This document shows, piece after piece, positions 1-15,005 of a stretch of DNA of 15,005 nt. Position numbers and translations under genes: made by a program. The notes beneath the pieces are model-generated. The model saw only the letters and a program-made list of their open reading frames with translations, did no database searches and was not told the origin of the DNA. The DNA is taken from contig CBDCXR010000001.1 of NCBI GenBank assembly GCA_965223845.1, forward strand, positions 1 to 15,005, given 5' to 3'. Positions within the stretch are counted from its first letter, which is position 1; each line of letters starts with the position of its first letter. This DNA is from Planctomycetota bacterium (lineage in GTDB: Bacteria; Planctomycetota; UBA8108; SXIK01).

Positions 1-1354
1 GACACGAACAGGATGAAACTTGTAGGTAGGATAGCCGCCATTCGATCCTTTTTGGCTTCTTACAGCGGAGATATACCAGGGACTATTCGCTATGCACGTC
101 AGGCGCTTGAGCATCTACCCGAACAAGAACGAGCAGGGCGTAGTACTGTTTTAATTGCCTTAGGGGATACATATGCTAGCCAGGGCCAAATGGCAGCAGC
201 GCACAAAGCCTGGTCAGATGCGCTGGCGACAGGCAGAGCTTCAGGCGATCATCTACCTGCTCATAATCGTCAATTCAAGACTAGCCGAGATCTTGAGACA
301 ACAAGGTCAGTTGCAGCAGGTCATAGATATCTGCGAGCACCAGTGGAAAAGCGCATATGAAAGTGACATTTCAGAATCGGCCGTCGTCGGTTGGTTATTA
401 GGGATATGGGGCGAGATTCTGGCTGAATTAAATGATCTAGATAGGGCCATCGATCAGGCGAAAAAAGGCGTAAAACTGACGGCACGTGGCGGGGATGTAT
501 TTTATGAAGTCATGAGCAACCTGAAACTGGTGAGAGTTCTATTTTCTAGGGGGGACATAACTGGCGTCGAAGATGTCATCCAAGCGATGGAGAATACCGC
601 TCGCGAACACGATATGCCGCTTTGGGCCTTGTGCCACTTATCAGCCTGGCAAGGGCGGGTATGGCTGGTACAAGGTAAACTTGGAGGTCGCATCCCAATG
701 GGTTGAAGAGCGTGGGTTGGATCCCGATGGAGAGCTTATATATCCATACGAAGTGGAGTATATCCTGTTTGCCCGTATCCTTATGGCTCAAGGGAAGTTT
801 GGATGAAGCGATCCACGCCTGTTGCAACGCCTGCTCGAGGCAGCAGAAGCAGGGGGACGTACATCAAGCGTGATCGAGCTTTTGATTCTTCAAGCGTTGG
901 CTGGGCATACGTCGGGGGCATGATACAACTCAGGCCATAACCTGGTTGGAAAAGGCCCTCACCCTGGCCGAGTCCAAATGGTTTCATCCGGATTTTTGTG
1001 GATGAAGGCCCGCCGATGGCTCGTTTGCTTTACGAAGCGCTTTCTCGCGGGACGGCTCCAGATTATGTTCAACGGCTATTAGCAGCATTTCCTATCGACG
1101 ATGCGGAACAGACGAGACCAGCGGACACGACAGATTCCTCAGCTACATTGATTGAGCCTTTGAGCGAGCGTGAAATCGAAGTACTCCAGCTCATCGCCGA
1201 GGGGCTGACCAATCAAGAAATCGCTAATAGGCTTTACCTCTCGCTCAATACAGTCAAGGTTCACACTCGCAATATCTACGGCAAACTCGATGCCCACCAC
1301 CGGGCGGATGCGGTGGCCAGGGCAAGGGCTTTGGGAATCTTCTCCTCCTCCTAA
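1..1354 (+). CDS. MalT-like TPR + LuxR-HTH transcriptional regulator, C-terminal part (5' end outside window), split by about 6-7 small indels
   Basis: Stitching ORFs 13-360, 173-706, 573-806 and 998-1354 plus the linking frames gives TPR-like helices (IRYARQALEHLP, ...LLQRLLEAAEAGGRTSSVIELLILQALA, LEKALTLAE-PNGFIRIFVDEGPPMARLL). These are followed by a LuxR HTH (LIEPLSEREIEVLQLIAEGLTNQEIANRLYLSLNTVKVHTRNIYGKL). Frame changes occur near 250, 680, 797-815 and 910-975. Confidence 0.88.
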
Positions 1355-1385
1355 TCGTCTTTGGCACATAAAACCAGTCAAACTG

Positions 1386-1418
1386 ACGGCCTGGTAGATA
1401 ACAAGCCGTTTTTTATTT
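1386..1418 (+). terminator. Possible imperfect intrinsic terminator after the LuxR gene
   Basis: ACGGC...GCCGT arms around an imperfect inner stem, directly followed by TTTTTATTT, 30-60 bp after the stop codon. Confidence 0.35.
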
Positions 1419-1434
1419 CCCTATCCAAGCCTGT

Positions 1435-1493
1435 AAATAACCCTCGAATAATACCCCAGGGGTATGACGCTAATACCATCTTGCGGCTATACT
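1435..1493 (+). promoter_or_regulatory. Putative sigma70-type promoter with a palindromic operator, upstream of the DUF4386-like cluster
   Basis: Perfect palindrome ATACCCC-A-GGGGTAT at 1451-1465. TAATACC repeats at 1449 and 1471, and related AATAACCC lies at 1436. ATGACG (1464-1469) and TATACT (1488-1493) are spaced 18 bp apart. Confidence 0.55.
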
Positions 1494-1558
1494 GAAGGTG
1501 TAAGATTTCAAACCAATCTCAGAATAGTCAAAGCCGCCTTGCTAAAGGAGAAAAAACG

Positions 1559-2356
1559 ATGGCTGTCAAAGAGAGTTTACAACTAATGGAGAAATCCACT
1601 TCAATCAGCAACGCATCAAACAAATATAAAGAAGAATCCAGAATAAACACACACAGAAAGACCGCAATTATTGTGGGTGTATTGTTCATCATTGCGACTG
1701 CTTTTCTGTTTATTGGAGAAGCTTTTTACAAACCTGTTCTAAGTTCTCCGGATTACCTGGAAATTGCTTATCCAAATCGAACAATTGTGATCATTGGCGT
1801 ACTACTTGAATTTATATGTGTCCTGGCAATGCCGCTCATAGCAGTCTTCGCGTTTCCTGTCCTCAAAAAACACAATGAAGCCTTGGCCCTGGGGTATGTC
1901 GTTTTCAGATCGCTTGAGGCGGTGATCTTAATCAGCGTGGCTGAAATCAATAAGCTGTCACTGATCGGTGTTAGTCAGGATTACCTAAATAGCGGAGGGG
2001 TGGACACTGCCTATTTTCAAACCATCGGTAGTACAATTCAGGCAGAAAATTACTGGGGCGATACAACAGGGCTGATCTACAATCTTGTGTTTATTTTCGG
2101 GGCTTTGATGCTCTATTCGGTACTGTATCAATCAAAGCTCGTGCCACGATGGATATCAGTCTGGGGTTTTATTGCTGCTGTCGCTTTGTTAATAGGTACG
2201 GTGCTGGCTTCATTTATTCACATCTCTCTGGCAATGGAGCTCTTCGTCGTCTTACCCATCGCTGTGCAAGAAATGGTGATGGCGGGATGGCTGATCGTAA
2301 AAGGTTTTAATCCATCTGTAATTCAGGTACAAGGTCATGTCAAACAAACAACCTAA
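1559..2356 (+). CDS. DUF4386-like multi-pass membrane protein
   Basis: About 6 hydrophobic segments with family-like motifs (RKTAIIVGVLFIIAT, HNEALALGY...R.LE, SKLVPRWISVWG, QEMVMAGWLIVKGFN). RBS AAGGAG lies upstream of ATG 1559. Confidence 0.8.
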   Translation: MAVKESLQLMEKSTSISNASNKYKEESRINTHRKTAIIVGVLFIIATAFLFIGEAFYKPVLSSPDYLEIAYPNRTIVIIGVLLEFICVLAMPLIAVFAFPVLKKHNEALALGYVVFRSLEAVILISVAEINKLSLIGVSQDYLNSGGVDTAYFQTIGSTIQAENYWGDTTGLIYNLVFIFGALMLYSVLYQSKLVPRWISVWGFIAAVALLIGTVLASFIHISLAMELFVVLPIAVQEMVMAGWLIVKGFNPSVIQVQGHVKQTT

Positions 2357-2614
2357 CCCAAAAACCGATCCAAATGAACCACGGGTCTATCAAACCAGGC
2401 TCAAGGGTCATCTGGGCCCGCAATGGACAGCGTGGTTTGGGGGCCTGAGCATCAGGCTGGAAGACAACGGCGATACGCTTTTAACCGGCCCGGTGGTCGA
2501 TCAGGCCGCGCATTGTACGGATTACTAAAAAAAGTGCGTGATTTAGGCATGCCCTTGCTTTCTGTCAATCGCGTTCAACTCAGTCAGGCAGATGCATCAG
2601 ATGTCAAACAGTAA
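2337..2614 (+). CDS. Small (~91 aa) conserved hypothetical protein, frameshifted near 2510
   Basis: ORF 2337-2528 (YQTRLKGHLGPQWTAWFGGLSI...TLLTGPVVDQAA) continues in ORF 2423-2614 (LYGLLKKVRDLGMPLLSVNRV). I recognise the joined protein as a small family often found near MalT-like LuxR and DUF4386 genes. Confidence 0.75.
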
Positions 2615-2646
2615 ATTGAGACAAGCATTTGAAGAGGAGAAAAACA

Positions 2647-3384
2647 ATGACGACCAAAGAAAGAATGAATACATACAGAAAGAACGCCGTAACGGCGGGC
2701 GTATTCTATATAGCGGCGACGGTTGCATCTAGCATAACTGTTATCATTATGACTTCTATGCTAGATGATCCGGATTATCTTGTTCGTGTTGCTGGAAATG
2801 AATTCCAAGTGATGATGGCCGCGCTCCTGATGTTAATTGATGTCGTTGCCGTTGTTGGCATCAGCATCGTGCTGTATCCAATCTTGAAAAAGCATATCGA
2901 AGCCTTAGCGCTTGGGTACGCTGCAGCCAGGGCAATTGAGGGCGTACTTTTTACAGTCTATGTCATCGGTATACTATCACTATTGACATTGAGTCAGGAA
3001 TTCGTCAAAGCAGGCGCGCCGGATGCTTCCTATTTTCAAACCGGAGGCGCGGTATTACGAGCAGCATCTGATTGGGCCTTCGCGCTTGGGCTACGACTTG
3101 CCTTCGGCGTATCTGCGTTGCTCCTAAACTATTCGCTATATCGAACAAGACTCGTTCCTCGCTGGTTATCTGCTTGGGGATTTGTTGGAGCCATCTTGGT
3201 ATTCGCCATACTCTTGTTTGAGTTTTTCGGCATCACTGTACTAGAAATCTCGGACATTCTCATAGCTGGGCAAGAAATGGTCTTTGCGGTTTGGCTAATC
3301 GTTAAGGGATTCAACTTATCGGTAATCGCTTCAGAGTCTGGAAGTATAGATGTGACCGGAACAACGAGCCGAACTACGACATAA
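2647..3384 (+). CDS. Second DUF4386-like multi-pass membrane protein (paralog of 1559-2356)
   Basis: Shares motifs with the first copy (LKKHIEALALGY, SYFQT, LVPRWLSAWGF, QEMVFAVWLIVKGFN). GAGGAG precedes ATG 2647, which I prefer to TTG 2629 as the start. Confidence 0.8.
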   Translation: MTTKERMNTYRKNAVTAGVFYIAATVASSITVIIMTSMLDDPDYLVRVAGNEFQVMMAALLMLIDVVAVVGISIVLYPILKKHIEALALGYAAARAIEGVLFTVYVIGILSLLTLSQEFVKAGAPDASYFQTGGAVLRAASDWAFALGLRLAFGVSALLLNYSLYRTRLVPRWLSAWGFVGAILVFAILLFEFFGITVLEISDILIAGQEMVFAVWLIVKGFNLSVIASESGSIDVTGTTSRTTT

Positions 3385-3407
3385 AACAGCATTCACGCGA
3401 CAACCGT

Positions 3408-3688
3408 AACTTTGGCTTGTTCGTGCTGACGACGTTTAGCAGCGATTCATTTATGTTGACCATACCATCTCACTCTAGCTTCCGACCACCTTGGTGCTAG
3501 TAGTCGCAACCCCCTCTCACGATTAGGCTGCCATCCTGCTAGGATGAGGTTTCATTGTCCCAGAGGCTTCGCACCTCACCGTTACGGGTGAGGTGCGCCC
3601 TGGCTGGTAGAGTACGGGTGGCAGAACACCCGGTTACATCCTGTCTTTTTCGGTTGTAACATCTTCTCACGCGACTTTCGTGTCGCAC
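3408..3688 (-). mobile_element. Truncated group II intron: 5' end and part of domain I only, no RT ORF, no domain V/VI
   Basis: The minus strand from 3688 reads GTGCGACACGAAAGTCGCGTGAG..., the GUGYG 5' consensus. It continues with domain-I-like TGTAACCGGGTGTTCTGCCACC, a GCACCTCACC-CGTAAC-GGTGAGGTGC stem-loop, GAAGCCTCTGGGACAATG, AGCAGGATGGCAGCCTAA and GGTCAACATAAATGAA...AAACGTCGTCAGC. The 3' limit is approximate. Confidence 0.75.
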
Positions 3689-3724
3689 GCGCTGGTGTGC
3701 GTTAAAGAAATAGGAGATATCTGA

Positions 3725-4196
3725 GTGAAGAGTCATAGTATCGAGGGGAAGCGGGGCAAATTCAGGATGTGCGGGCAGCGACCCGCCAGACGCTCGGTCC
3801 GGTTCGGGCCCAAGAACTACATCGCGCCTGTGAGATACTCGGTGTACAGCACACCCTTTGCCTCAACTATGGCGATGGGGCCTTGCAAAATGCTGATCCA
3901 GAGGCATTGACCAGACACATCACCCAAATTATCCGTACCTTTCGACCGGATGTGGTGATTACCTTTGGCCCAGACGGAGCCTACGGTCATCCTGACCATA
4001 TAGTCATCAGTGGAATCATCACCGAACGCAATTTTCAGTTGCGCCCGACACATTGCCCCTGGAGGTGCTGGGCGACTGGTTCGGCCGGGAGTGCTTTGTG
4101 CTCGCCCACCCCTCGATCCGCGCCATGAAGTCCCGGCCCTTTCGGGCAACGAAGATAAGGACTGAAACAGCTACGGGCCAAGGGGCCACCCCTTAA
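3725..4196 (+). pseudogene. PIG-L/MshB-family deacetylase with two internal deletions
   Basis: AGGAG RBS and GTG 3725 give MKSHSI. A second frame gives RGEAGQI...VRAQELHRACEILGV...LNYGDGAL...IRTFRPDVVITFGPDGAYGHPDH (3742-~4015). A third frame gives HRTQF...LGDWFGRECFVLA to TAA 4194-4196. The N-terminal HPDD(E) metal motif is absent. Confidence 0.8.
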
Positions 4197-4240
4197 GCGA
4201 AAACCGCTATCGCAGCCAGTCATTTGGCTCTGGCGGCTTG

Positions 4241-4267
4241 ATCCCCACCCCATATCAAAGTGGGGAT
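4241..4267. repeat. 8-bp inverted repeat between convergent genes, possible hairpin
   Basis: ATCCCCAC (4241-4248) and GTGGGGAT (4260-4267). No clear U-tract. Confidence 0.3.
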
Positions 4268-4422
4268 AGGTCCAGAGAACTGAGCATTGTCAAAGCCGGT
4301 CCGGGTCATCTTCGAGCTATGGCCATCGAAATTGCCTAATGTAGATTAATCAAAGGGAAGATTAAGAATGGTGAAAAAACTACCTGCATCTACCGCCTCA
4401 GGCAAACAGTAAAATCCATAAA

Positions 4423-5055
4423 TTATACAGTACCAGCCTCGTCCTCTACAACCAGAATCTTGATAAAGGTGTAGATCATATAAATCGTAACCACCTCAAA
4501 GACCAGCAAGCCGGGTAACATCAGATAGCTGAACCAGGTAACCAGACCTACTACAAACAGGCTGATGGGAAAGATAAAATGGGCGAGATTGCTATAAACA
4601 TTAAGCAGATTTAACCTTAGCGGTTGAAAGTAAAACCGAACCAGCCAGGGACCCTCTTGAACCAGGGTTGTTTTCCAATGATGGGCCGGCTGTCGGATAA
4701 AGATTGCCACCAACAGACCAGCTATCCACTCTATACCAATGATGAGCGGAGCCAAGGTTAGTCCTGACAACACCCAGACAAAGGTATGGGTCAATAAATC
4801 AATGGTTAACTCAAATACAGCTCCGAAGTTGGTCACATGGCCCAACTGTCGCGCTAAATAGCCATCGACGACATCCAGAATCAACAGACAAATAAAGAGC
4901 CAAACCGCAATTCCCCAACGTAGACCGCTGCCTATCGCCCAGCCCATGAAAGTATATAAATAGACGGTGACGACAGCCATAGTCAGCATGGCTAAACGCC
5001 CGTACCCCACCAGGTTGAAAGGATAGAGCAGGATATTTGAAGTCGTGAGCTTCAC
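4423..5055 (-). CDS. CDP-alcohol phosphatidyltransferase family protein
   Basis: Motif DVVDGYLARQLGHVTNFGAVFELTID, an N-terminal PFNLVGYGRL segment and multiple TM helices. The start is probably GTG 5055 (GAAGGGGG upstream). The ORF track starts at 5082. Confidence 0.85.
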   Translation of the reverse strand: MKLTTSNILLYPFNLVGYGRLAMLTMAVVTVYLYTFMGWAIGSGLRWGIAVWLFICLLILDVVDGYLARQLGHVTNFGAVFELTIDLLTHTFVWVLSGLTLAPLIIGIEWIAGLLVAIFIRQPAHHWKTTLVQEGPWLVRFYFQPLRLNLLNVYSNLAHFIFPISLFVVGLVTWFSYLMLPGLLVFEVVTIYMIYTFIKILVVEDEAGTV

Positions 5056-5129
5056 GCCCCCTTCAGACTGGTCTTCGGCCAATGATATTTCTCAAGAAAT
5101 CCAATTGATGAGCGGTACAAATCAGCTAT

Positions 5130-5492
5130 CTAACGAGGTCGTAAGCTAGCGGCCATAATACGTAATTGATGGAAGTCAATAGGCTTGAAAAGAACTGCCT
5201 CAACCTCTCCCCGAAGCATATTGGCCTTATTTAGGTCAGCCGAGGCCACAATAACCTTCGTTTCGACTAGCCGTTTGTCCGCCTGAATACGTTCCAGAAT
5301 CTCTTCCCCTGAAACTTGGGGCAGATGGAGGTCTAACACCACCAAAGCAGGCGTGGTTACTTTTAGTCTGGGCAAGGCAATGGCACCATTGTAGATGATT
5401 TCGGTTTCAAATCCGGCTTTCTGTACGGCAAAGGCGAAGATGTCGGCAAGTTTTGGATCATCTTCAATAATCAGGGCTAATGGGTTTGTCAT
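5130..5492 (-). CDS. Single-domain (CheY-like) response regulator
   Basis: IIEDD, VVLDLHLPQVSG (phospho-Asp), IVASA and FKP motifs. Start overlaps the kinase stop by 4 nt (ATGA). Confidence 0.92.
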   Translation of the reverse strand: MTNPLALIIEDDPKLADIFAFAVQKAGFETEIIYNGAIALPRLKVTTPALVVLDLHLPQVSGEEILERIQADKRLVETKVIVASADLNKANMLRGEVEAVLFKPIDFHQLRIMAASLRPR

Positions 5493-7477
5493 TCTGTTTG
5501 GTCCTGAATTAGGTTTAGTGGTAACAAGACGGTGAAGGTACTACCCTGTCCCACCTCACTGTCTAAGCTGACCTGTCCCCTCATCAGGGTGGCGAGCTGT
5601 TTGACGATAGATAACCCCAGACCCGTGCCATCATGCGCCCGGGTGACCGAACCATCCACCTGGCCAAATGGATCAAAGATATGGGCATGAAATTCTTCAG
5701 GGATGCCAGGACCGGTATCGGTGACCTGTAGTACCCAATGGGTGGCGTCAGTCGTACGGATGTGGACTTGCACCTCGCCTTGCTGGGTAAATTTGATGGC
5801 ATTACTCACCAGATTGACCAAGATCTGCTGCACCCGGATTGGATCGCCGGATAAGGTCGCCGGCACATCAGTAGCCACGTTGGTTGCTAGGTTTAACCCT
5901 TTGTTCCGAGCGAATATCTGCATCTTCGCCTGCATTTGCTCAACAACATGTCGTGGTGAGAAAGGTTCATGGCTCAAGGTCAATTTACCAGCCTGCAATT
6001 GACTTTGATCTAACAACTCATTGACCAACTTGGTCAGATAGTGGGCACTGTCTATAACATCTGAGATTTTCTCTGTCTGCTCATCAGAGAGGGGGCCGAA
6101 GAACTCCTCTGTCAGCATCTGACTGTAGCCCAGGATGGCTCCAAGCGGGGTACGTAGTTCGTGGCTCACTTTGGCTAGCAGTTCAGTCTTCAACCGGCTG
6201 GCCTCTAATGCTTGATCCCGGGCATGAGCCAGGGCCAGTTCAGACCTTTTTCTTTCCGTAATATCTACAACTTGAGCAATAAGATAATGTGGCTTTCCCT
6301 CTGCGCTACGAACAAAACCTACTTGCAAAATAATATAAATAGTCTGGCCACTTTTATGAATATAGCGCTTCTCCAACTGATAATTGGAGATTTCTTCCTG
6401 CTTTAGTTGTTGAAGGAAAGTCAAGTTATTGGGTAAATCATCGGGGTGAGTAATATCCATAAATGATTTTGTTAATAATTCCATGGGCGCATAACCAACC
6501 GTATCGGCGAATGCTTGATTAACTTGTTGGAACATGCCCTCTAAGGAAGTTATGGCCATACCCGTTGGGGCAAGCTCAAAGAGCAAACGAAATTGTTGCT
6601 CACGTTCACGTAGCGTTTCCTCAACCCGTTTGCGCTCTATAATCTCTATTTTAAGTTGTTGGTTGCTGTCCTCCGCTCGTTTGAAGAGATGATATGTACT
6701 GATGAGTAAGCCAACAATCACCATGACATAGCCCAGAATTTTTAAGATATGAGCAAGATTAAACATTACATCAAACAACTGGCTTGAAACGGCCATCGCC
6801 GGAAAATGCAAAAAAGTGTTTATAATCAGCGCTATGACCAACCAATGTGTAAAGCTGCTCTCCGTCCTAGAACCTTGACGTAAGATAGTCACGGCAGCAA
6901 ATAGAAAAAAGAGGGCGGGAATAAGCTCCCACGGGCGAGGAATTAATTGTCCTGGATAATAGACTTGTCGTGGCAAAGGCACAAACGTGAAGAAGAGAAA
7001 ACTCGCTAGAGTCAATCCGATGACAAGACTGTAGGTAAGTATTTCTGTAGCTCTATCTGTTGACGCAAAGATTTTCTGTTTGGGCCAGAGGTGCCAACCT
7101 ACCCCTAGAAATAGAGCTAAAAACACTCGTGAAGCCATCCAACTCCAGGGAATGAGAGAAGGGAGTGTCGTGGGGTAAGAAACGGGAAATGTAGTAGAGG
7201 TCACAAAGGTATGAAAACTATCCAGCATCGCAGTACCGAAAAACCCCGCGCCGACAAGCAAGAATATTAGATGCTTTTGACTATAGTAACGCACTAAAGC
7301 AATAACGCCGACGAACAAAGCCAAAAAGGTTGCTATTGATTCTAATACCGTATGAGTTCGAGCCGTAGTCTGCCATTGAACATTCTGTAGAGCAAAACTG
7401 CCTAATATAAGAATAAGGCTAAGAACAATATAAGCTACTACCCGATTTTGTACTTGTTGGTTTTGTTTCGTTTGCAT
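5489..7477 (-). CDS. Membrane sensor histidine kinase: MASE3-like ~7-TM N-terminus, PAS/PAC, HisKA, HATPase
   Basis: Hydrophobic N-terminus (HTVLESIATFLALFVG...FLLVGAGFFGTAMLDSFH) and PAS (FELAPTGM...ITHPDD...EKRYIHKSG...DITERK). Kinase boxes: H-box SHELRTPL, N-box QILVNLVSNAIKFT, G1 DTGPGI, F IFDPF, G2 GTGLGL. Confidence 0.93.
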   Translation of the reverse strand: MQTKQNQQVQNRVVAYIVLSLILILGSFALQNVQWQTTARTHTVLESIATFLALFVGVIALVRYYSQKHLIFLLVGAGFFGTAMLDSFHTFVTSTTFPVSYPTTLPSLIPWSWMASRVFLALFLGVGWHLWPKQKIFASTDRATEILTYSLVIGLTLASFLFFTFVPLPRQVYYPGQLIPRPWELIPALFFLFAAVTILRQGSRTESSFTHWLVIALIINTFLHFPAMAVSSQLFDVMFNLAHILKILGYVMVIVGLLISTYHLFKRAEDSNQQLKIEIIERKRVEETLREREQQFRLLFELAPTGMAITSLEGMFQQVNQAFADTVGYAPMELLTKSFMDITHPDDLPNNLTFLQQLKQEEISNYQLEKRYIHKSGQTIYIILQVGFVRSAEGKPHYLIAQVVDITERKRSELALAHARDQALEASRLKTELLAKVSHELRTPLGAILGYSQMLTEEFFGPLSDEQTEKISDVIDSAHYLTKLVNELLDQSQLQAGKLTLSHEPFSPRHVVEQMQAKMQIFARNKGLNLATNVATDVPATLSGDPIRVQQILVNLVSNAIKFTQQGEVQVHIRTTDATHWVLQVTDTGPGIPEEFHAHIFDPFGQVDGSVTRAHDGTGLGLSIVKQLATLMRGQVSLDSEVGQGSTFTVLLPLNLIQDQTE

Positions 7478-7485
7478 ATATGATT

Positions 7486-7522
7486 CCTTAGCAACAACAG
7501 ATCTCGCATTTTGTTGTTAAGG
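7486..7522 (-). promoter_or_regulatory. Intercistronic stem-loop covering the kinase RBS
   Basis: The mRNA reads CCUUAACAACAA-(13 nt)-UUGUUGCUAAGG-AAUCAUAU-AUG, a 12-bp stem with one mismatch whose 3' arm contains most of the AAGGA Shine-Dalgarno. Confidence 0.45.
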
Positions 7523-7544
7523 TTTGAACTGATCCAAACTTTCT

Positions 7545-8879
7545 CTATTCACTTGGCCGAATAATTGGGTTAGCGATTGTTCGATACGTTGAGGGCCAGA
7601 TAACCGCCATGTCATTTGAGTGTTGATTGGGTGCCGTATATTGAAGAAATAGTAATGGAACATCTGGCCATTGATGCCACATAAATTCGGGTACGTATCC
7701 ACCCGCTGGATTCTCAATTCCGTAGGGAAAACTGTATTGTCCTGAAGTGAGTTCAATATCTGCTGACTCTAGAGCCTTAATAATTGGATCAGGGTTTAGT
7801 GAACCGGCGCGATTAATAGCATCCGCTATCAGCCTTAACGAGTCATAGGCTTCAAAGGCATAAGGTTCAGGCCACCGATCAAACACCTCCTGATATCGTT
7901 GCACGAACCGGGCGCCTTCATCAGTAATGGTAGATCGCCATGGGCCGATTCTTGGTACAACAACATAAGCACCGTCGGGTACTTGTTGCCAATACTCTTC
8001 ATGGTTCAAGGCTACTTGGTTGGCAACCAGCATGGTCTGATCATTGGGGGCAAGACCCGCTTCAATAATCTGTCGTTGTAATCCATAAGATGTCTCTCCA
8101 GTCACCTTAACTAAGATTGCATCCGGCATAATCTCAAGAGCTCGAATGGCGTTTATAACCGATGAAAAATCACCCGTTGGTAGATCAACAAAAATGACTT
8201 CTGATGTAATGCCAAATTCAGGAAACCAGGTCTCTGCTTTGTCTATTTGCCCAACGCCATACTCAGTATTTTCGGCAATAATCGCAGCTGAAATAATGCC
8301 ATTACCATTGTAATCTCCAACATCGGCTAACCATTTAGCGTCCATCTGAGCGGTAAAAGTCGAGGTTGGTGCAATGCGAAAGACTTCTGGATATCCGGAG
8401 GCAGTGATATCGTCACTGTAGGTTTCAGCAAAAATAACAGGTATACGATATTGATGGGCAACCTCCATGACCGTCAAACCAACCGCACTATGATATTCAC
8501 CAACAATCGCAACGACACAATCTTGGGTAATCAGTTGCTCCGCGACCTCTGTGCCCTCCTCTGGCAAGCCTTTTGTATCGCCAACAATTACACGTAACTG
8601 TTTTCCAAGGACACCTCCAGCGGCATTGATATCTTCAATCGCAAAATTGAATGCGGTTTGCATAACTTGACCAGCTGATGCAGCACCTGGTTCCGAAAGT
8701 GGAATTGTAACCCCTATGACGATCTCATCTTCCTCCGTCACACTAGTCGGAGCACATCGTCCTGGGATTGATATAATATCCGTTGCTCCGTCGACGTCAC
8801 GCGGCGACGCTTGGCAAGCTGAAAGAAAAAAGGCGCTCAATGTAATCCATAGTATAACAATTGCAGTTTTCACTATCAT
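7545..8879 (-). CDS. LivJ/LivK-type (type 1) ABC substrate-binding lipoprotein
   Basis: Lipobox LSAC, plus IVIGVTIPLS, EDINAAGGVLGKQL...DTKG.PE, AIVGEYHS, FRIAP, ENTEYG and AYDSLRLIADAINRAGS. GGAGG RBS upstream. Confidence 0.9.
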   Translation of the reverse strand: MIVKTAIVILWITLSAFFLSACQASPRDVDGATDIISIPGRCAPTSVTEEDEIVIGVTIPLSEPGAASAGQVMQTAFNFAIEDINAAGGVLGKQLRVIVGDTKGLPEEGTEVAEQLITQDCVVAIVGEYHSAVGLTVMEVAHQYRIPVIFAETYSDDITASGYPEVFRIAPTSTFTAQMDAKWLADVGDYNGNGIISAAIIAENTEYGVGQIDKAETWFPEFGITSEVIFVDLPTGDFSSVINAIRALEIMPDAILVKVTGETSYGLQRQIIEAGLAPNDQTMLVANQVALNHEEYWQQVPDGAYVVVPRIGPWRSTITDEGARFVQRYQEVFDRWPEPYAFEAYDSLRLIADAINRAGSLNPDPIIKALESADIELTSGQYSFPYGIENPAGGYVPEFMWHQWPDVPLLFLQYTAPNQHSNDMAVIWPSTYRTIANPIIRPSE

Positions 8880-8894
8880 TTACCTCCATATGTG

Positions 8895-8963
8895 TAGGTC
8901 AGCCGTCGCCACGATAACCTTCGTCTCAACCAGCCGTTCATCCGTCTGAATATGTTGTAGATT
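8895..8963 (-). pseudogene. Remnant of a paralogous response regulator
   Basis: Ungapped alignment to 5232-5300 gives 56/69 identical nt by hand count. It encodes NLQHIQTDERLVETKVIVATADL versus ILERIQADKRLVETKVIVASADL. Confidence 0.85.
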
Positions 8964-9028
8964 TTGGGCTAAAAAATTCATCAACTAAATTTTGTCTTGA
9001 ACAAAGTAAATAGAAGGTGTTTTTGGTC

Positions 9029-9962
9029 TCATTTCCAGGCAATACTTTCAACCGCTTGCTGTAAATCTGCTTGAGCTCCCTGAATATAGATCATCGTTGT
9101 GTCGAGCGAGTCATGCCCCATAATCTGAGCCAGACGATGAAGAGGGACTTTCTCAGCCATCCGATAGCCAAAACGATGTTCGTAAATCACGGGGTTGTAA
9201 GTTTGAAATGCCAGCTTGTTGCACATATTTATGGATGATGAACCCAATCGCTCGCTGGGTCAGCTTGTCCTTTGTTCGTTGGGAGAGAAATAGATAATCG
9301 CTCTCTGTTGACCTCGTATTGAGATATTCTTGTAACACTTTACGGACGGTTATGTTGAGCGGTACCTCTCGATACTTATTGCGCTTACCCCACACCTTCA
9401 CCTGACCACGATGCTGTCGCAGGATGACATGCTTCAGTTTTAGGTGACACACCTCACTGACCCGCAGTCCAGTATGTAACATAAAAATAATGATGGTCCG
9501 ATCCCGTAAGGTACCGCTTGTTTTCACTGCCGCAATTAGGTTCTTCTCCTCCTGGTCACTCAGACGTCGTGGGGGATGCGGTGTTTCTTTAATCAACTGT
9601 ACTTCTTGGGCTGGATTATGTAAGATCATCCCTTTCTCAGTGGCCCATGTGAAGTACTTTTTCACGCTGATCAGATAACGATTCACCGTTGCCGGCTCCC
9701 GCCCCAATTCGTGTTGCAAATAATCTCGGTAGCGGGTTAGGGTCAGGGTAGATATTTGCTCTGGTGAAAAAAGTTGGAGAAGTTCCTGCCCTTGGACCCA
9801 ACTCTCCTCACACCAAATCATAAACAGGCGAACATCACCCACATAGCCTCGAATGGTTGCCATACTTAGATCAACCTTATTACGCAAATGACATTCAAAG
9901 TGGTCAAGGGCTTGTTGCCCAGTTGTTGATAAAACCCCCTTTGGCTGTTGTTTTGTTCCCAC
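9029..9962 (-). CDS. Tyrosine recombinase/integrase (XerC/D-like), +1 frameshift near 9180
   Basis: N-terminal SAM-like core-binding segment (SMATIRGY..D; PATVNRYLIS), then RDRTII..MLHTGLRVSE and GKRNKYREVPL. PRDLR joins HRFGYRM...LAQIMGHDSLDTTMIY in ORF 9029-9247 once one extra A is removed (CGA-A-CAT). Confidence 0.9.
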
Positions 9963-9979
9963 GATAGTGCCTTTAAAAA

Positions 9980-10027
9980 ATTAACGGATATAATCGAGTG
10001 ATATTATCTTATATTATATCCGTTAAT
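9980..10027. repeat. Perfect 15-bp inverted repeat upstream of the recombinase (candidate recombination or operator site)
   Basis: ATTAACGGATATAAT (9980-9994) and ATTATATCCGTTAAT (10013-10027), with an 18-bp spacer. Each arm contains TATAAT. Confidence 0.75.
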
Positions 10028-10184
10028 ATCATTTAATGGTAGTATGCCTGGGACCTTTTTCTTAGCTCTAAATCCTTAAAATTTGCCAGGCGATGATTGT
10101 GGCTGCCGTTAAACAAACCGCTTATCCTTAGCTTTAAGAAAAATTTATCGATATGCCCAAATACGAGCAGCGAATAATATCTTG

Positions 10185-10213
10185 CTGATTAGTAAAACGT
10201 CATATAGTATAAT
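10185..10213 (+). promoter_or_regulatory. Possible sigma70 promoter for the membrane SAM-domain gene
   Basis: TATAAT at 10208-10213 in AT-rich DNA. The -35 match is weak (CTGATT at 17 bp). Confidence 0.3.
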
Positions 10214-10264
10214 TAATCAATTTTGGTAAGGGGGGTAAAGAGCATCAAGGTATTGAAACAGGTC

Positions 10265-12742
10265 ATGAACAGTGCTTACCCTACCATATTTTTGATCTCT
10301 GCCGCTATGTTAGCCTTGCAGGTGGTTCTGACCCGCTTTTTTGCCCTGGCCCAGGGACATCATTTTGCTTTTATGACCATTAGTCTGGCCCTTTTAGGAG
10401 CGGGGGGCGAGCGGAACCTATCTATCGATATGGCAGCCGACGACAGACATCTGGCGTCATCACCTACAGCGCGGGGCGATCTTATTCTCTATTTCACTTC
10501 CCATTGCCTATTTGGTCACAAATTATCTTCCCTTTGATGCCTATCGCTTAGCCTGGGAACCGAGCCAACTGCTTTATCTGAGCCTCTATTATCTGTCCCT
10601 GACCATTCCCTTTTTTTTTGGCGGGCTGGTGATCGGAATAGCGCTGTCGGTTCAGTCAGAGCGGGCAGGTTCAACTTATGCGGTCAATTTGCTGGGGTCT
10701 GGCTTGGGGCCGCCGCTGGCCCTCCTGGCCCTGGCCACGGTTGGCGGGCCGGGGGCGGTCATCTTCTGTACCTTCCTTGGTTGGTTGGCCGTGGTCGCCG
10801 CACAGGGATCAGTTATAAGGGAGGAGCGGTTTGTCAAGAGGCCAATACAACGGTGGCTAAAGATCGCCGGATATAGTGCCATTACGATAATCCTCCTCAG
10901 CCTCACCCTCTACCCCCCGTCCCTCTTTGAGGTGCGCCTCACCCCCTACAAGTCGCTGTCTCAAGCGCAGCTCTATCCCGGTAGTGAGGTTGTTTTTCGG
11001 CAATGGAACGCCATTTCACGGGTCGATGTTCTGCAAAGTGAGGGCATTCGGTCGGCCCCAGGCTTGAGTTTTACTTATCCGGATGCGCTACCCCCGCAGT
11101 TGGGCTTGGTGATAGATGGGGATAATTTGGTCCCGATGAGTGGACCTGACCAAGCCAGGTTTACCGGCTATTTACCGCTCTCGCTGGCCTTTCAATTACG
11201 CCCTCAGGCCAACACCTTAATTCTGGAGCCGGGGGGTGGCTTGGCCGTTTTAACGGCTCGAGAACATGAAGCCGGACCGATCACGGTTGTGCAAAGTAAT
11301 CCTACGGCCCTGGCTGTCGTCCGTGAGTATGCGGGTGATGATAAGGGGAAGCTATATGATGACCCTGATCTAACCCTCATTATTGGTGAACCGCGCAGTT
11401 TCTTACGCCCGAACAGCCCAGCAATATGACCTGATTATGCTGCCCTTAACCGACACCTTTCATCCGGTCACGGCTGGCGCGTATACGTTGGGGGAAGATT
11501 ATCTGTATACGGTTGAAGCCTTTAGCGACATGTTGGACCATCTGGCCCCAGACGGTTTGCTCGTGGTAGAGCGTTGGCTGCAGCTACCCCCCAGCGAGAG
11601 CCTGCGGGTGTGGGGAACCGCTGTTGAGGCGCTGCGCCAAAGTGATCTTGGGGCAGACCCGGCTGCCCATCTGCTAGCCTTGCGCACCTTGCAAACATCG
11701 CTCGTTGTCGCCTCCCGCACTCCACTTTCAGCAGGTGATCTGACAGTGGCCCATAATTTTGCGGAGGAGTTACAATTTGATCTGGTTTGGCTACCGGGTA
11801 TCCAACCGGAAAGCGTCAACCGCTTCAGCAGGGTGCCGGATGCTCCTTATTACCACACTTTTTACCGAGCTACTGACCAGCCCAGACCCCGCTGATTTTT
11901 ACAGCCGGTATAGCTATGCCGTTGCCCCGCCCACGGATGACCATCCCTTCTTTTTTCACTTTTTTAAGTGGCAACAAACCTCCGAAATTGTACAAGCGTT
12001 AGGAAAAACATGGCAGCCTTTTGGCGGCAGCGGCTACCTGGTACTCGTTGTATTACTGATCTTGGTCATCGGACTATCAGCCGGACTGATCATTTTTCCG
12101 CTACTTTGGTTAAAAGCTGAAGGCCGGCCGGCCTCCAGCCCCGCTGATCGCCAGACCTCAGCTCCTAAGCTTCGTTATCTACTTTATTTCACCTTGTTGG
12201 GTCTCGGCTTCTTGTTTGTAGAGATTCCCCTGCTGCAACAGTTCATTCTATATCTGGGGCAGCCGACCTATGCTTTTACCGTGGTTGTGGCCGCTATCTT
12301 ACTCGCTGCCGGGGTGGGCAGCAACACCCTTTCGTCGCGCTTGGCGCTGCACATCGTGTTGCCCCTAATCATTCTCTTGACCATTGCCTATCCATTTTTG
12401 TTACCCTTACTTTTTGACGCAACCCTCCGTCTACCTTTTATTGGTCGCATCGTGGTCACCGGGCTAGCATTATTTCCGTTAGGAGCGCTATTAGGTATTC
12501 CATTTCCCCAGGAGGTGGCTTTAATCGGGAAAAATGCGCCAGGTTTGGTGCCTTGGGTATGGGCGGTAAACGGCTGTGCCTCAGTAGTTAGCGCGATTTT
12601 AGCGGCGATGATTTCGCTCACCTGGGGGTTTTCCATCGTCTTATGGAGCGGGGCGCTCATGTATGGTCTGGCCGGAATGACGATCTGGATCATCCATCAC
12701 TCTCGGGTAAAGGGTACAAACCTCACCCCACCCCAGTTGTAA
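10265..12742 (+). CDS. Large membrane protein with central spermidine-synthase-like SAM-binding domain (~825 aa), split by three +1 homopolymer insertions
   Basis: N-terminal TM block (LQVVLTRFF...HHFAFMTISLALLG; YAVNLLGSGLG) and a soluble domain (WNAISRVDV, LILEPGGG, EPRSFL, YDLIML, EDYLYTVEAFSDMLDHLAPDGLL, PPTDDHPFFF). C-terminal TM block (LGLGFLFVEIPLLQQFILYLGQPTYA; GIPFP; WVWAVNGCASVVS). Removing one base each at the G-run ~10405, C-run ~11409 and T-run ~11861 restores a single frame. Confidence 0.85.
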
Positions 12743-13511
12743 CGCACAATCTCATCACCGCGTCGTTCAATCAACCACAAACTTTGATAGCCACCCGGCG
12801 GACCAATGGGAATGACCATCTTCCCGCCGTCAGCCAACTGGTTGACCAACGGTTGGGGCACATGATCGGGGGCCGCCGTCACAATAATGGCCTCAAATGG
12901 GCCGGCCTCTGCCACCCCCCGTATCCATCAGCTTGTTTGGCCTTAATTTGGTCATAGCCGAGCTGATCAAACGTGTTTTGGGCCCGTTCCGCCAGTTCCG
13001 GGATAATCTCAATCGTATAAACCTTATCTGTCAGGGCGGCCAAGATGGCCGCTTGATAGCCTGATCCAGTGCCGATCTCCAGAACACGGTCACCGGGCTG
13101 GAGGTCGATTAGTTGGCTCATCAAAGCCACGATATAAGGCTGGGAGATGGTCTGCCCATAGCCAATGGGCAGGGGATGATCATTATAAGCCTCACTGTGG
13201 TAGTCAGTCGGCACGAATTCGTGGCGCGGCACCTGGCCCATGGCAGCTAACACGGTTGTATCAGATATATCACGCCCCTTAAGTTGTTGTTCAACCATGA
13301 TCTGCCGCTGCGTCTTATATGGATCGGCCAGAGCGATGGTTGATATGGTGGTTGGGGAAGCAACGATGAGCAGCGTTGGCGTCATAGGGACCAGTGGCGT
13401 TTCCGAAGCAAGTTCGGAGGGCCTACTGTCCAAGCAAGCGGTCAGGCTACCTCCTAAGAGGAGGGTGGCCACACCCAAAATCTGCGTCAAATTTTTGGCC
13501 CACATCTGCAC
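12697..13511 (-). CDS. pcm: Protein-L-isoaspartate O-methyltransferase with N-terminal lipoprotein signal, frameshift near 12913
   Basis: MVEQQLKGRDI, VPRHEFVP, AYNDHPLPIGYGQTISQPYIVALM, VLEIGTGSGYQAAILA and ADGYGGW join EAGPFEAIIVTAAPDHVPQPLVNQLADGGKMVIPIG...VRFVPF in ORF 12697-12915. The N-terminus has a Lys, a hydrophobic stretch and LTAC (Cys26). Confidence 0.9.
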
Positions 13512-13613
13512 TATCTAGAATCCTTTCCCTAAAAAAATCACTACAAATAGCTAATTAGGCGTAAAAAGCCGGGCTGTTCCAAAATAACCGCACTACTATT
13601 GCCTACGATCAGG

Positions 13614-13993
13614 CTACCGTGCCTCCCCAAAACGCAATCCCCAGGGTCTTTCGAGGCCAACAGCGGGGATTACATTTAGACTCTGAGGAAGTTCTGTGAC
13701 CAGACTGGTGAATGTGTCTTGTTCCTGGATGGTTACATAAGCACAACACCAACCCTGTTCTGTAAAACGCTTTTCCAATTGCGTGAGAAACTCTGTTTTT
13801 CCGTACCCTGCCGGGGCGGCTAACAGATAATACGCTGGGGCATACGAAGACAGAATCTCCCTTATTTCGTCCTCACGATTGGTAAAAGGAATAGGCTGGG
13901 TTTTTGACCTTCCAAAGCTTTTCGTTTTTCAAGAAATTGTAAACAACGCCGGTAAATCTCTATCAGTTCTTGAATATGATCCGTTTCCGGCAT
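13614..13993 (-). pseudogene. Truncated STAND-like P-loop ATPase, absent from the ORF track
   Basis: GAGGA RBS and ATG 13993 give MPETDHIQELIEIYRRCLQFLEKRKALEGQ. After a frame change at the A-run near 13903 it reads IPFTNREDEIREILSSYAPAYYLLAAPAGYGKTEFL... Walker A is at 13794-13817. TAG 13614-13616 comes before any Walker B. Confidence 0.7.
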
Positions 13994-14283
13994 AAACATC
14001 CTCGCTTATTGTAAAAGGTTAGCGGCACAACAGGTTTTGTTGCTATAAGTCAATTTGGGATGATGATTATTTTGAAAACGAGAAGGATTTGAAAGACAGA
14101 GGAAGTTCTTGCGAGGTGGGGTCAAATTCGGGCAATCGAGAGCTGTTAGCAGGTGGTAACTCTTGAATGGCAGACTTATTAAAGTAGCAAGTTCTAATCT
14201 AGAAAAGGAAAAATGAGGGGAATCCCCCTTTCTCAATTATAAACCAAGTATATTGTAGATACACTGGACAAATGAACTGTTTA

Positions 14284-14307
14284 TAAACTGGTTAAGTGAC
14301 CAGTTTA
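14284..14307. promoter_or_regulatory. Palindromic operator-like site in AT-rich intergenic DNA
   Basis: TAAACTGGT-TAAGTG-ACCAGTTTA: perfect 9-bp arms with a 6-bp spacer. Confidence 0.4.
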
Positions 14308-14487
14308 AGATATGACTCCAGAGCCAAACCTTAACCGTTATCTTCCACAATCACCTCGCCCTCAACGAGATCGAGGTTATAGGACAAGCTGCCGAACCCT
14401 TTGTCCCTTCTTACAGTTCGATTCAACTACCCATGATCCTTAAATGATCTTATTATCGACGCGGTTAGAGCAAAATAATTTAGAGGA

Positions 14488-15005
14488 TCAAAGGCAATGT
14501 TTTAGACGATCAGCCAAGATTTGGACCTGAGGTTTTTGAAGATCATAGCTTTATCCCAGGGATGTCATGAAGTTCTATTTCAGCCGCCCAGTCATCCCAT
14601 CCCATATGCGGGTCATACTCATACTCGGCGGATGCCTCATCTGTGGGGTTGAAGAGGGTTATTCGTCCGGAATAGTAGCGCAAAAAGGATGGGGTTTCGG
14701 GGGCTGATCTTGACTGTTGAGCAGAATTAGGAATAAACCTCCGAGTCATTCGCCGGACTCTATTGCCGACAAGCCTTAACAGGTATGTTATTTTTTTCCT
14801 TAGCGGAGTGTTTGAGAAATTTATCGAGATGGTCACGCGCCCTCTGGCCAAAACTTGGCAATCGTTTACGGATAGAACCTGATAAATAGGCATAAATGAT
14901 AGCTACCAGATCAACCGTCTGGCCTTGAGCCTGAAGTTGGTGGGCCATAGCAAAAGCGACTTCACCGCCATAGCAAAAACCAGCCAGCAGGTAAGGCCCC
15001 CTCCG
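14488..15005 (-). CDS. C-terminal thioesterase domain of NRPS/PKS type (gene starts beyond window), several frameshifts
   Basis: GPYLLAGFCYGGEVAFAMAHQLQAQGQTVDLVAII, then YSGRITLF...DPHMGWDDWAAEIELHDIPG, and after further shifts MIF..PQVQILADRLKHCL. The 3' end is approximate. Confidence 0.8.

Follow-up and report, generated by a model that had tools for sequence, protein, structure and literature searches.

A pair of convergent genes was analysed at positions 10,265 to 13,511 of a 15,005-nucleotide stretch of DNA deposited with a Planctomycetota assembly (NCBI GenBank assembly GCA_965223845.1, contig CBDCXR010000001.1, positions 1 to 15,005 of the forward strand); this whole stretch is referred to as the window. 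One gene, pcm, encodes a protein-L-isoaspartate O-methyltransferase (PIMT) with a lipoprotein-type anchor, and the other encodes a membrane protein which is predicted to combine the fold of the major facilitator superfamily (MFS) with an inserted domain of the spermidine synthase (SpeE) fold. Judged from sequence comparison, the pair appears to be a conserved two-gene module of Chloroflexota which also occurs in some Actinomycetota and Armatimonadota. The proposed reading is that the PIMT faces outward, is docked to and fed by its MFS partner, and serves isoaspartate repair at the cell surface. Taken as a whole, this reading is given a probability of about 0.5. Its parts differ in strength: that the PIMT is exported and that the pair is conserved are both well supported, and supply of the cofactor by the partner is plausible.

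To our knowledge, isoaspartate repair has been described only for the cytoplasm, where S-adenosylmethionine (AdoMet) is made. Within the literature covered as full text (subscription journals lay outside this scope), nothing was found on a PIMT that is exported or periplasmic, on AdoMet-dependent methyltransferases of the periplasm, or on this membrane family and fusions of MFS with SpeE. The findings place a member of the known PIMT family in what would be a new compartment, next to a new partner, and so suggest an undescribed extracytoplasmic repair system. Extracytoplasmic proteins age too and, if true, the proposal would explain isoaspartate repair in bacterial surface proteins as well as the use of a cytoplasmic cofactor outside the cell. 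Moreover, the membrane family is large and without a name. The features of the pair are listed below (TM, transmembrane helix).

10265..12742, plus strand: membrane protein of the MFS fold with an inserted SpeE-fold domain, in four frames (tblastn of homolog P0123)
10271..10817, plus strand: N-terminal MFS lobe, TM1-6 (mapped from an AlphaFold2 model of homolog P0122)
10854..10910, plus strand: extra helix TM7, leading out of the membrane (same model)
10911..12031, plus strand: SpeE-fold domain of about 370 amino acids, predicted extracytoplasmic (Foldseek, VIA-align, charge count)
12032..12124, plus strand: extra helix TM8, leading back into the membrane (same model)
12155..12700, plus strand: C-terminal MFS lobe, TM9-14 (same model, VIA-align)
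12697..12742, no strand: 46-bp overlap of the 3' ends of the convergent genes (open reading frame coordinates)
12697..13511, minus strand: pcm, PIMT with a lipoprotein-type anchor, in two frames (Pfam PCMT)
13326..13433, minus strand: Pro/Ser/Thr-rich linker, residues 27-62 (homolog alignment)
13434..13511, minus strand: signal peptide with lipobox L-T-A-C, the codon of Cys26 at 13436-13434 (read from the translation)

A methyltransferase with a lipoprotein-type leader

By its family matches, pcm appears to encode a true PIMT-family methyltransferase with a full-length catalytic core. Its two pieces matched Pfam PCMT with 131.7 bits (12879-13511, positions 4-141) and 67.1 bits (12697-12915, positions 138-207), against a cut-off of 20.3. 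A preliminary description of the window, made without database searches, had called this core intact; the gene is in fact split into these two pieces, with the break at about 12912-12920. Because the frame break splits the gene, the pieces scored 165.3 and 67.3 bits separately with NF001453, each under the cut-off of 188. Intact PIMT homologs are 254-297 amino acids long, and those scored (P0004, P0045, P0009 and the copies at the loci described below) reached 224.1-276.1 bits with NF001453 and 193.8-253.4 bits with TIGR00080 (cut-off 159.05). Across 27 and 26 aligned sequences, the stretches G-Q-T-I-S-Q-P, L-E-I-G-x-G-S-G-Y-Q-A-A and D-G-Y are invariant, as is an acidic residue after the second strand; we take these to be the cofactor- and substrate-binding motifs, and the window retains every one of them.

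The N-terminus is what distinguishes this PIMT. A GTG at 13511 is a possible start, and the ATG at 13505 is likelier, since residue 1 of homolog P0004 aligns with it in tblastn; the start thus does not lie downstream of the lipobox, whose Cys is residue 26 counted from the GTG and residue 24 from the ATG. The leader contains Lys6, an uncharged stretch and then L-T-A-C26, just as the preliminary description had quoted it. It fits the lipoprotein signal rule, namely a basic N-terminus, a short uncharged hydrophobic stretch and a lipobox Cys within about the first 35 residues (judged by a pattern rule and not by SignalP). This leader is conserved, with the Cys invariant in all 27 aligned close homologs. 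The Pro/Ser/Thr-rich linker, likewise claimed at the outset, was read after the Cys in the window translation; among homologs, the segment from the invariant Cys up to the conserved D-P-Y at the start of the core is variable both in sequence and in length. Given the lipoprotein signal or anchor and the flexible linker, the catalytic domain of the PIMT is therefore expected on the outer face of the cytoplasmic membrane. Lgt and LspA (PF01790 and PF01252, over their cut-offs) were found in five of five genomes that hold the pair (G001, G003, G235, G049 and G004).

Presence of the leader follows presence of the membrane gene. Among 46 PIMTs adjacent to a membrane gene of this family, 44 have a readable N-terminus and all 44 carry a hydrophobic leader, which is followed by Cys in 40 and forms a Cys-less membrane anchor in four (L006, L010, L064 and L073). 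By comparison, only one of 40 unlinked PIMTs (G227), from a sample of 301 Chloroflexota genomes, has a leader. These controls were the first 40 rows by E-value that were neither beside a membrane-family match nor already examined; G066 and G102 (contig edges), G267:C125 and second copies near pairs were excluded. Of the refuting conditions named in the preliminary description (a true start beyond the lipobox, a leader not conserved in homologs, no conserved linkage of the families), none was borne out. In a tree of the PIMT core (100 rows) the distribution of leaders requires 4 changes, where shuffled labels require 33 on average, and 54 of the 55 leader-bearing rows fall into one group of 63 (Shimodaira-Hasegawa-like approximate likelihood ratio test, SH-aLRT, 96).

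Some genomes hold leaderless copies as well. At five loci (L080-L084, in G235, G251, G184, G166 and G121) the pair is accompanied, at a distance of 0.2-3.5 kb on the upstream side of the membrane gene, by a leaderless PIMT. In the tree this copy is the sister of the leader-bearing one, which points to a local duplication in which a leader was gained or lost. A second, leaderless PIMT is encoded elsewhere on the chromosome of G001, and the second PIMT of G003 has an open frame of only 228 amino acids.

Compared with cytoplasmic Pcm/PIMT (NF001453, TIGR00080, PF01135), the window-type PIMTs belong to the same family and have a full-length core with the invariant motifs. They differ in their added lipoprotein signal or anchor, in the variable Pro/Ser/Thr-rich linker, in their mostly separate tree branch and in clade-specific residues at the interface predicted below. 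A likeness in fold, together with a dedicated partner or substrate, is also shared with the PIMT-like enzymes of peptide natural products (FxLD, TIGR04364; ATP-grasp, TIGR04188). The FxLD and ATP-grasp peptide maturase systems are cytoplasmic. Assignment to this type was rejected on scores of 133-147 bits against a cut-off of 320 and 103-127 bits against 380, and no precursor-peptide or maturase gene recurs beside the pair in the 79 loci surveyed.

The membrane partner and its predicted fold

The second gene had been described as a multi-TM protein with a central spermidine-synthase-like domain. This stood by fold and in full-length homologs; the window gene itself lies in four frames, and its four pieces gave no Pfam or NCBIfam match at E <= 0.01, so that the spermidine-synthase likeness is visible only in the full-length homologs and by fold. 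In tblastn, residues 1-806 of the 823 residues of homolog P0123 were covered by the pieces 10265-10411, 10404-11408, 11410-11898 and 11861-12688. Full-length homologs measure about 780-870 amino acids, and the family is extensive: among 1.84 billion proteins, 5,198 cluster representatives were found at E <= 1e-30, 11,133 at 1e-10 and 18,673 at 1e-3.

An AlphaFold2 model of homolog P0122 (predicted local distance difference test, pLDDT, 82.8; predicted template modelling score, pTM, 0.83) consists of seven helices, a domain of about 370 amino acids and another seven helices. When compared with 48,161 chains by VIA-align, its membrane part matched NorA (28vj_B; Z 26.6, 331 residues aligned, root-mean-square deviation (rmsd) 3.4) and VMAT2 (9kqa_A; Z 26.2). 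OxlT, MFSD10 and LtaA also matched, and the top 37 rows were all MFS-type transporters. The likeness to these transporters comprises the 12 core helices, with Z of 20-26.6 over 320-350 aligned residues. MFS transporters have an N-in/C-in layout, and their 14-helix members have two extra central helices. Unlike them, the partner holds a folded domain of about 370 amino acids between its extra helices and matches no MFS sequence model, as no Pfam match to one was found at E <= 0.01 in 7 full-length homologs. Comparison of the two membrane halves gave no internal repeat (hhalign probability 1%, E 0.053).

The inserted domain matched SpeE (1uir) both by VIA-align (Z 19.0, 257 residues aligned, rmsd 3.7, model residues 219-553) and by Foldseek (1uir_A; E 6.7e-8, TM-score 0.55 on the target), and its SpeE-type fold includes the N-terminal beta domain. 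In sequence, PF01564 (Spermine_synth) gave 18.3-26.2 bits on the 7 full-length homologs, with three of them above the cut-off of 22.9; TIGR00417 gave 20-25 bits against a cut-off of 249.55, and NF002956 (NCBIfam, aminopropyltransferase) matched weakly, with E down to 1.7e-8. SpeE proteins, including the membrane-fused PRK03612, are thus alike in fold over about 260-330 residues and weakly alike in sequence, whereas the partner carries the domain between two helices midway through its MFS part, where it is predicted to face outward and has catalytic residues replaced. The acidic residue of G-G-G-[D/E]-G and the Asp residues of D-x-x-D are catalytic in SpeE. In a profile alignment, V-G-G-G-E-G-A of 1uir corresponds to E-P-G-G-G-L-A in the family, where the acidic residue is gone, and I-D-L-T-D corresponds to L-P-L-T-D, where Pro replaces the first Asp; both this Pro and the second Asp are kept across family members. 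The ribose-binding position of the domain is variable across the family. A true aminopropyltransferase was rejected as an identity for the partner, since catalytic residues are missing.

The orientation of the domain was derived from charge. Over 25 homologs, lysine plus arginine came to 17.5 for the two termini and the even-numbered loops together, but to 2.1 for the odd-numbered loops; both termini are therefore placed inside and the inserted domain outside, in agreement with the MFS layout given above, the two extra helices lying in the central loop. On these models and counts, the partner is predicted to be an MFS-fold transporter whose SpeE-fold domain faces outward, on the same side as the PIMT. 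At its other end, the variable C-terminal tail of the membrane protein lies opposite the conserved C-terminus of the PIMT (12697-12742), and the like tails of P0128, P0143 and the window protein may be a by-product of the gene overlap.

Pairing, predicted contact and a possible mechanism

The membrane gene reads from an ATG at 10265 to a stop at 12742, and pcm ends in a stop at 12697. The two genes converge and overlap by 46 bp, as the preliminary description had given it, and the two families proved to be linked across genomes. A scan with one genome per species yielded 79 loci of the membrane gene, mostly from Chloroflexota (Anaerolineae, Caldilineae, Dehalococcoidia and Chloroflexia), with further loci from Actinomycetota, one from Armatimonadota, one from Sysuimicrobiota (as labelled) and two from archaeal bins. 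A PIMT gene was found in 50 of these loci, on the opposite strand in every case; in 46 of the 79 it lies downstream of the membrane gene at a distance of 300 bp or less, and 29 of these 46 pairs have overlapping 3' ends. Every other neighbour family is confined to at most 7 of the 79 loci, and the linkage is therefore not general synteny.

A genome-level survey of an even sample of 301 Chloroflexota genomes found the membrane family in 39 and PIMT in 183 (a count that includes G178 and G277, used nowhere else). In all 18 genomes with a membrane-family match of at least 532 bits, a PIMT directly adjoins it on the opposite strand. Another 15 genomes have lower full-length matches (414-512 bits); none of the 15 has an adjoining PIMT among the matches listed, and 10 of them have no PIMT at E <= 1e-30. 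Seven of these lower-scoring loci were examined directly and their flanks were without PIMT. On the tree they form a separate, PIMT-less branch of the membrane family (SH-aLRT 99). Among the loci of the membrane gene without PIMT, neighbours are diverse and no alternative conserved partner was found. At three of the seven loci examined from the PIMT-less branch (L085, L086 and L087, in G268, G236 and G300) the gene lies inside co-directional polysaccharide clusters with GT4 and GT2 glycosyltransferases, acyltransferase-3, a Wzx-like flippase, GNVR and HlyD-type proteins and a B12-radical SAM enzyme.

The association also extends beyond adjacency. Ten genomes hold an unlinked membrane gene of the main branch, and nine of them have a high-scoring PIMT elsewhere (none was found in the tenth). 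These nine comprise four with a lipobox, four with a Cys-less anchor and one whose N-terminus is cut by a contig end; four of the unlinked genomes also have a second, leaderless PIMT. In G066 (L135, G066:C245:1-3000) the two genes are co-directional, with the leader-bearing PIMT first and the membrane gene 3 bp after it, and the same pair is thus found in a different gene order.

These patterns bear on the possibility that the linkage is simply inherited gene order and the leader a cytoplasm-facing anchor, with both domains inside the cell and using cytoplasmic AdoMet. The loci do come mostly from one phylum and are related, and the topology is known from prediction. However, the rest of the neighbourhood is not conserved, and the pair recurs in another gene order, in other phyla and, when unlinked, genome-wide. 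A lipobox Cys after a short hydrophobic stretch and a basic N-terminus is moreover a signature of export, and the charge bias of the partner points the same way. This alternative is accordingly regarded as very improbable.

A complex of the pair, envisaged in the preliminary description, was predicted for the outward-facing parts, using the outward domain of P0143 (residues 212-600) and the mature PIMT P0045 (residues 15-254) encoded on the same contig. Three runs scored 0.74, 0.70 and 0.66 (median 0.70), against 0.00 for the best of three controls; the partner pLDDT was at least 80 and at least 45% of contacts were common to the runs. The model thus passes its controls. Among solved complexes 58 of 80 attain the score mark, and among mismatched pairs 2 of 110; these counts are rough here, since own alignments were used. 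We know of no solved PIMT-SpeE complex that the model could have remembered. From this model we infer that the outward-facing parts of the two proteins bind each other. The PIMT contacts include residues that flank the cofactor and substrate motifs (100-102, 151-153 and 177-179). Among the interface residues are the stretches S-A-P-G-L and R-W-L-Q in the outward domain and, in the PIMT, the clade-specific P-D-H and G-P-P-G-G-Y.

Conservation at the predicted interface differs between groups. Leaderless PIMTs share the consensus of the leader clade at a fraction of 0.33 over the 33 interface positions and of 0.60 over the 170 remaining positions of the core, while within the leader clade interface and other positions are equally conserved (0.70). 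On the side of the membrane protein, linked members scored 0.58 at the interface against 0.56 elsewhere, and unlinked members of the main branch 0.60 against 0.59. In the PIMT-less branch the fractions retained are 0.18 over the 34 interface positions and 0.36 over the 331 others; the segment 528-532 is absent in all seven of its members.

The contact can also be read differently, with the membrane protein as an envelope-modifying or transport protein (for polyamines or exopolysaccharide, for example) and the anchored PIMT as its accessory. The PIMT would then maintain or regulate this one protein, perhaps by methylating a particular Asp or isoaspartate in the outward domain, instead of serving surface proteins at large. 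Asp-Gly and Asn-x sites readily form isoaspartate. The model sets the residues flanking the PIMT active site on conserved loops of the outward domain, where positions 286 and 288 fall in D-G-D-N-L; a PIMT-less branch exists, three of its seven examined loci lie among polysaccharide genes, those for chain-length proteins included, and several unlinked loci of the main clade hold sugar-transferase, epimerase, GT2 or GT9 genes. An accessory of this kind would nevertheless require AdoMet outside the membrane, so that the main puzzle would stay. An enzyme with one substrate would also need no long flexible linker, which was seen in 27 of 27 homologs, and the score of the PIMT is that of a full repair-enzyme equivalog. 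For these reasons the accessory role is considered unlikely.

The preferred reading, an outward PIMT fed by its partner, would proceed in three steps. First, the outward SpeE-fold domain would dock the PIMT. Second, the MFS part would export AdoMet or take back its product, and the outward domain would serve as the hand-over point. Third, the tethered PIMT would methylate isoaspartyl residues of surface-exposed proteins and thereby start their repair. The MFS fold, the outward SpeE-fold domain and the complex model together make the idea of cofactor supply more concrete. In its logic the proposed arrangement resembles MsrPQ, a periplasmic system of methionine-sulfoxide repair in which the membrane partner supplies reducing power: in both, a repair enzyme outside the membrane would work with a partner that brings a cytoplasmic resource across. 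The families and the chemistry are unrelated, and the resource supplied here would be a methyl donor. A bolder and more doubtful version, which can be entertained only tentatively, is that this may be the first extracytoplasmic AdoMet-dependent enzyme system, in which a dedicated MFS protein exports the donor and the SpeE-fold domain hands it to a lipid-anchored PIMT repairing long-lived surface proteins; the PIMT-less branch would then represent a wider class of transporters feeding adenosyl-type cofactors outside.

Instead of supplying the donor, the partner could bind the PIMT as a scaffold which places it at the membrane surface. The donor would then leave the cell in complex with the enzyme, be acquired from outside, or play no part (a PIMT that only binds). 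In favour of this, the outward domain is without SpeE residues that contact the cofactor, and paired arginines seen by eye in some leaders could hint at export in a folded state. Most leaders, however, are without paired arginines (again by eye, and not a formal test for twin-arginine translocation, Tat), the MFS fold with Z above 20 to many transporters favours transport, and the invariant AdoMet motifs of the PIMT favour turnover with the cofactor. A mere scaffold therefore seems quite improbable.

Several observations weigh against an outward PIMT fed by its partner. We only infer the role of the MFS part in AdoMet supply, and with the SpeE cofactor-site residues absent, the outward domain may bind neither AdoMet nor decarboxylated AdoMet. 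The PIMT-less branch implies that the membrane protein has a job of its own. Of the 79 loci, 33 have no adjacent PIMT (four of these have one 0.7-4.9 kb away, and three have less than 400 bp of downstream DNA, which leaves 30 with enough of it), and over the 84 rows of the membrane-protein tree, within its main branch, linkage must be gained or lost 7-10 times. Because the genes converge, they are not co-transcribed; this, together with the frame breaks in both genes and the PIMT-less branch, was missed in the preliminary description. Related sequences are not independent samples, the topology rests on charge counts and not on DeepTMHMM, and the signal-peptide calls rest on pattern. A leader-bearing PIMT is also found in G227 (L134, G227:C34) without a membrane-family neighbour, and no family member was found in that genome; it converges on genes which, by eye from their translated N-termini, resemble membrane decarboxylase subunits. 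Finally, both genes are frame-broken in the present record.

Frame breaks and the origin of the contig

The window spans its contig completely (15,005 bp, 48% GC), while the main contig of the same assembly measures 7.87 Mb with 65% GC; the assembly is 91.74% complete and rpoB on the main contig is intact. An intact binding-protein gene at 7545-8879 has its best matches in Anaerolineae (76% identity), and the nearest homologs of the PIMT and the membrane protein come from Anaerolineae or Chloroflexota metagenome-assembled genomes. From these best matches, the contig appears foreign to the main genome of the assembly, and it is probably a contaminant or a fragment of a co-cultured organism. A search of the assembly with the membrane family returned the four window pieces as its only members, with none in the main genome, and one weak SpeE-like match on contig C4 (E 1.8e-6). 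The frame of the two genes is broken at four positions.

10402..10407, plus strand: frame break 1, six G where five would keep the frame (DNA, tblastn, alignment)
11408..11410, plus strand: frame break 2, three C where two would keep the frame (DNA, tblastn, alignment)
11859..11863, plus strand: frame break 3, five T where four would keep the frame (DNA, tblastn, alignment)
12912..12920, minus strand: frame break in pcm (tblastn, change from frame -1 to -3 between 12912 and 12918)

For pcm, P0004 aligned in tblastn with 13505-12912 in frame -1 and with 12918-12700 in frame -3, which suggests that one base is missing beside or within a homopolymer. Three lesions affect the membrane gene and one affects pcm; each is a change of one base at a homopolymer, and neither a stop codon nor any further defect was seen. 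When the pieces were read in turn, the window was found to keep every family-invariant residue: 139 of 139 defined from 25 full-length membrane homologs and 94 of 94 defined from 26 PIMT homologs. Because all of these residues are kept, sequencing or assembly error is likelier than decay, and the breaks are probably indel errors in a low-quality foreign contig.

The alternative is that the window copy is a dead relic, with true pseudogenes amid the debris of mobile elements. Four frame breaks within 3.2 kb would be consistent with this, as would the other broken genes of the contig (a MalT-like regulator, a tyrosine recombinase, and PIG-L, IS110, STAND-NTPase and thioesterase fragments) and the presence of a group II intron fragment. 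About 5.9 kb of the contig genes are intact, moreover, which is uneven for random error. Decay involving four indels should nevertheless have altered some of the invariant residues, the lesions are confined to single bases at homopolymers, and an orphan contig of 15 kb and 48% GC in an assembly of 91.74% completeness fits a low-coverage, error-prone by-product. A relic is thus given a low probability.

The remaining features of the contig lie on both sides of the pair. Directly upstream of the membrane gene is a tyrosine recombinase of the XerC/D type at 9029-9980 (minus strand) in two frames (9153-9980 and 9029-9259), with its last catalytic part encoded in the second. Upstream of pcm, the segment 13614-15005 (minus strand) holds a STAND/AAA NTPase fragment (13614-13928) and a thioesterase fragment (14760-15005). 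A group II intron D1-D4-7 (RF02012) was found at 3478-3633 (minus strand) with 97.8 bits over the full Rfam model; no Pfam match to a reverse transcriptase was obtained in the neighbouring frames scanned, and a PIG-L fragment (3739-4128) and an IS110 transposase fragment (4166-4339) lie near it. The MalT-like regulator (TPR_MalT and GerE/LuxR helix-turn-helix) occupies 1-1354 (plus strand) in three frames (1-360, 164-706 and 941-1354). Two tandem DUF4386 genes, both intact, follow at 1559-2356 and 2629-3384 (plus strand), and an intact cluster at 5130-8879 (minus strand) encodes a Peripla_BP_6 binding protein, a MASE3-PAS histidine kinase and a single-domain response regulator.

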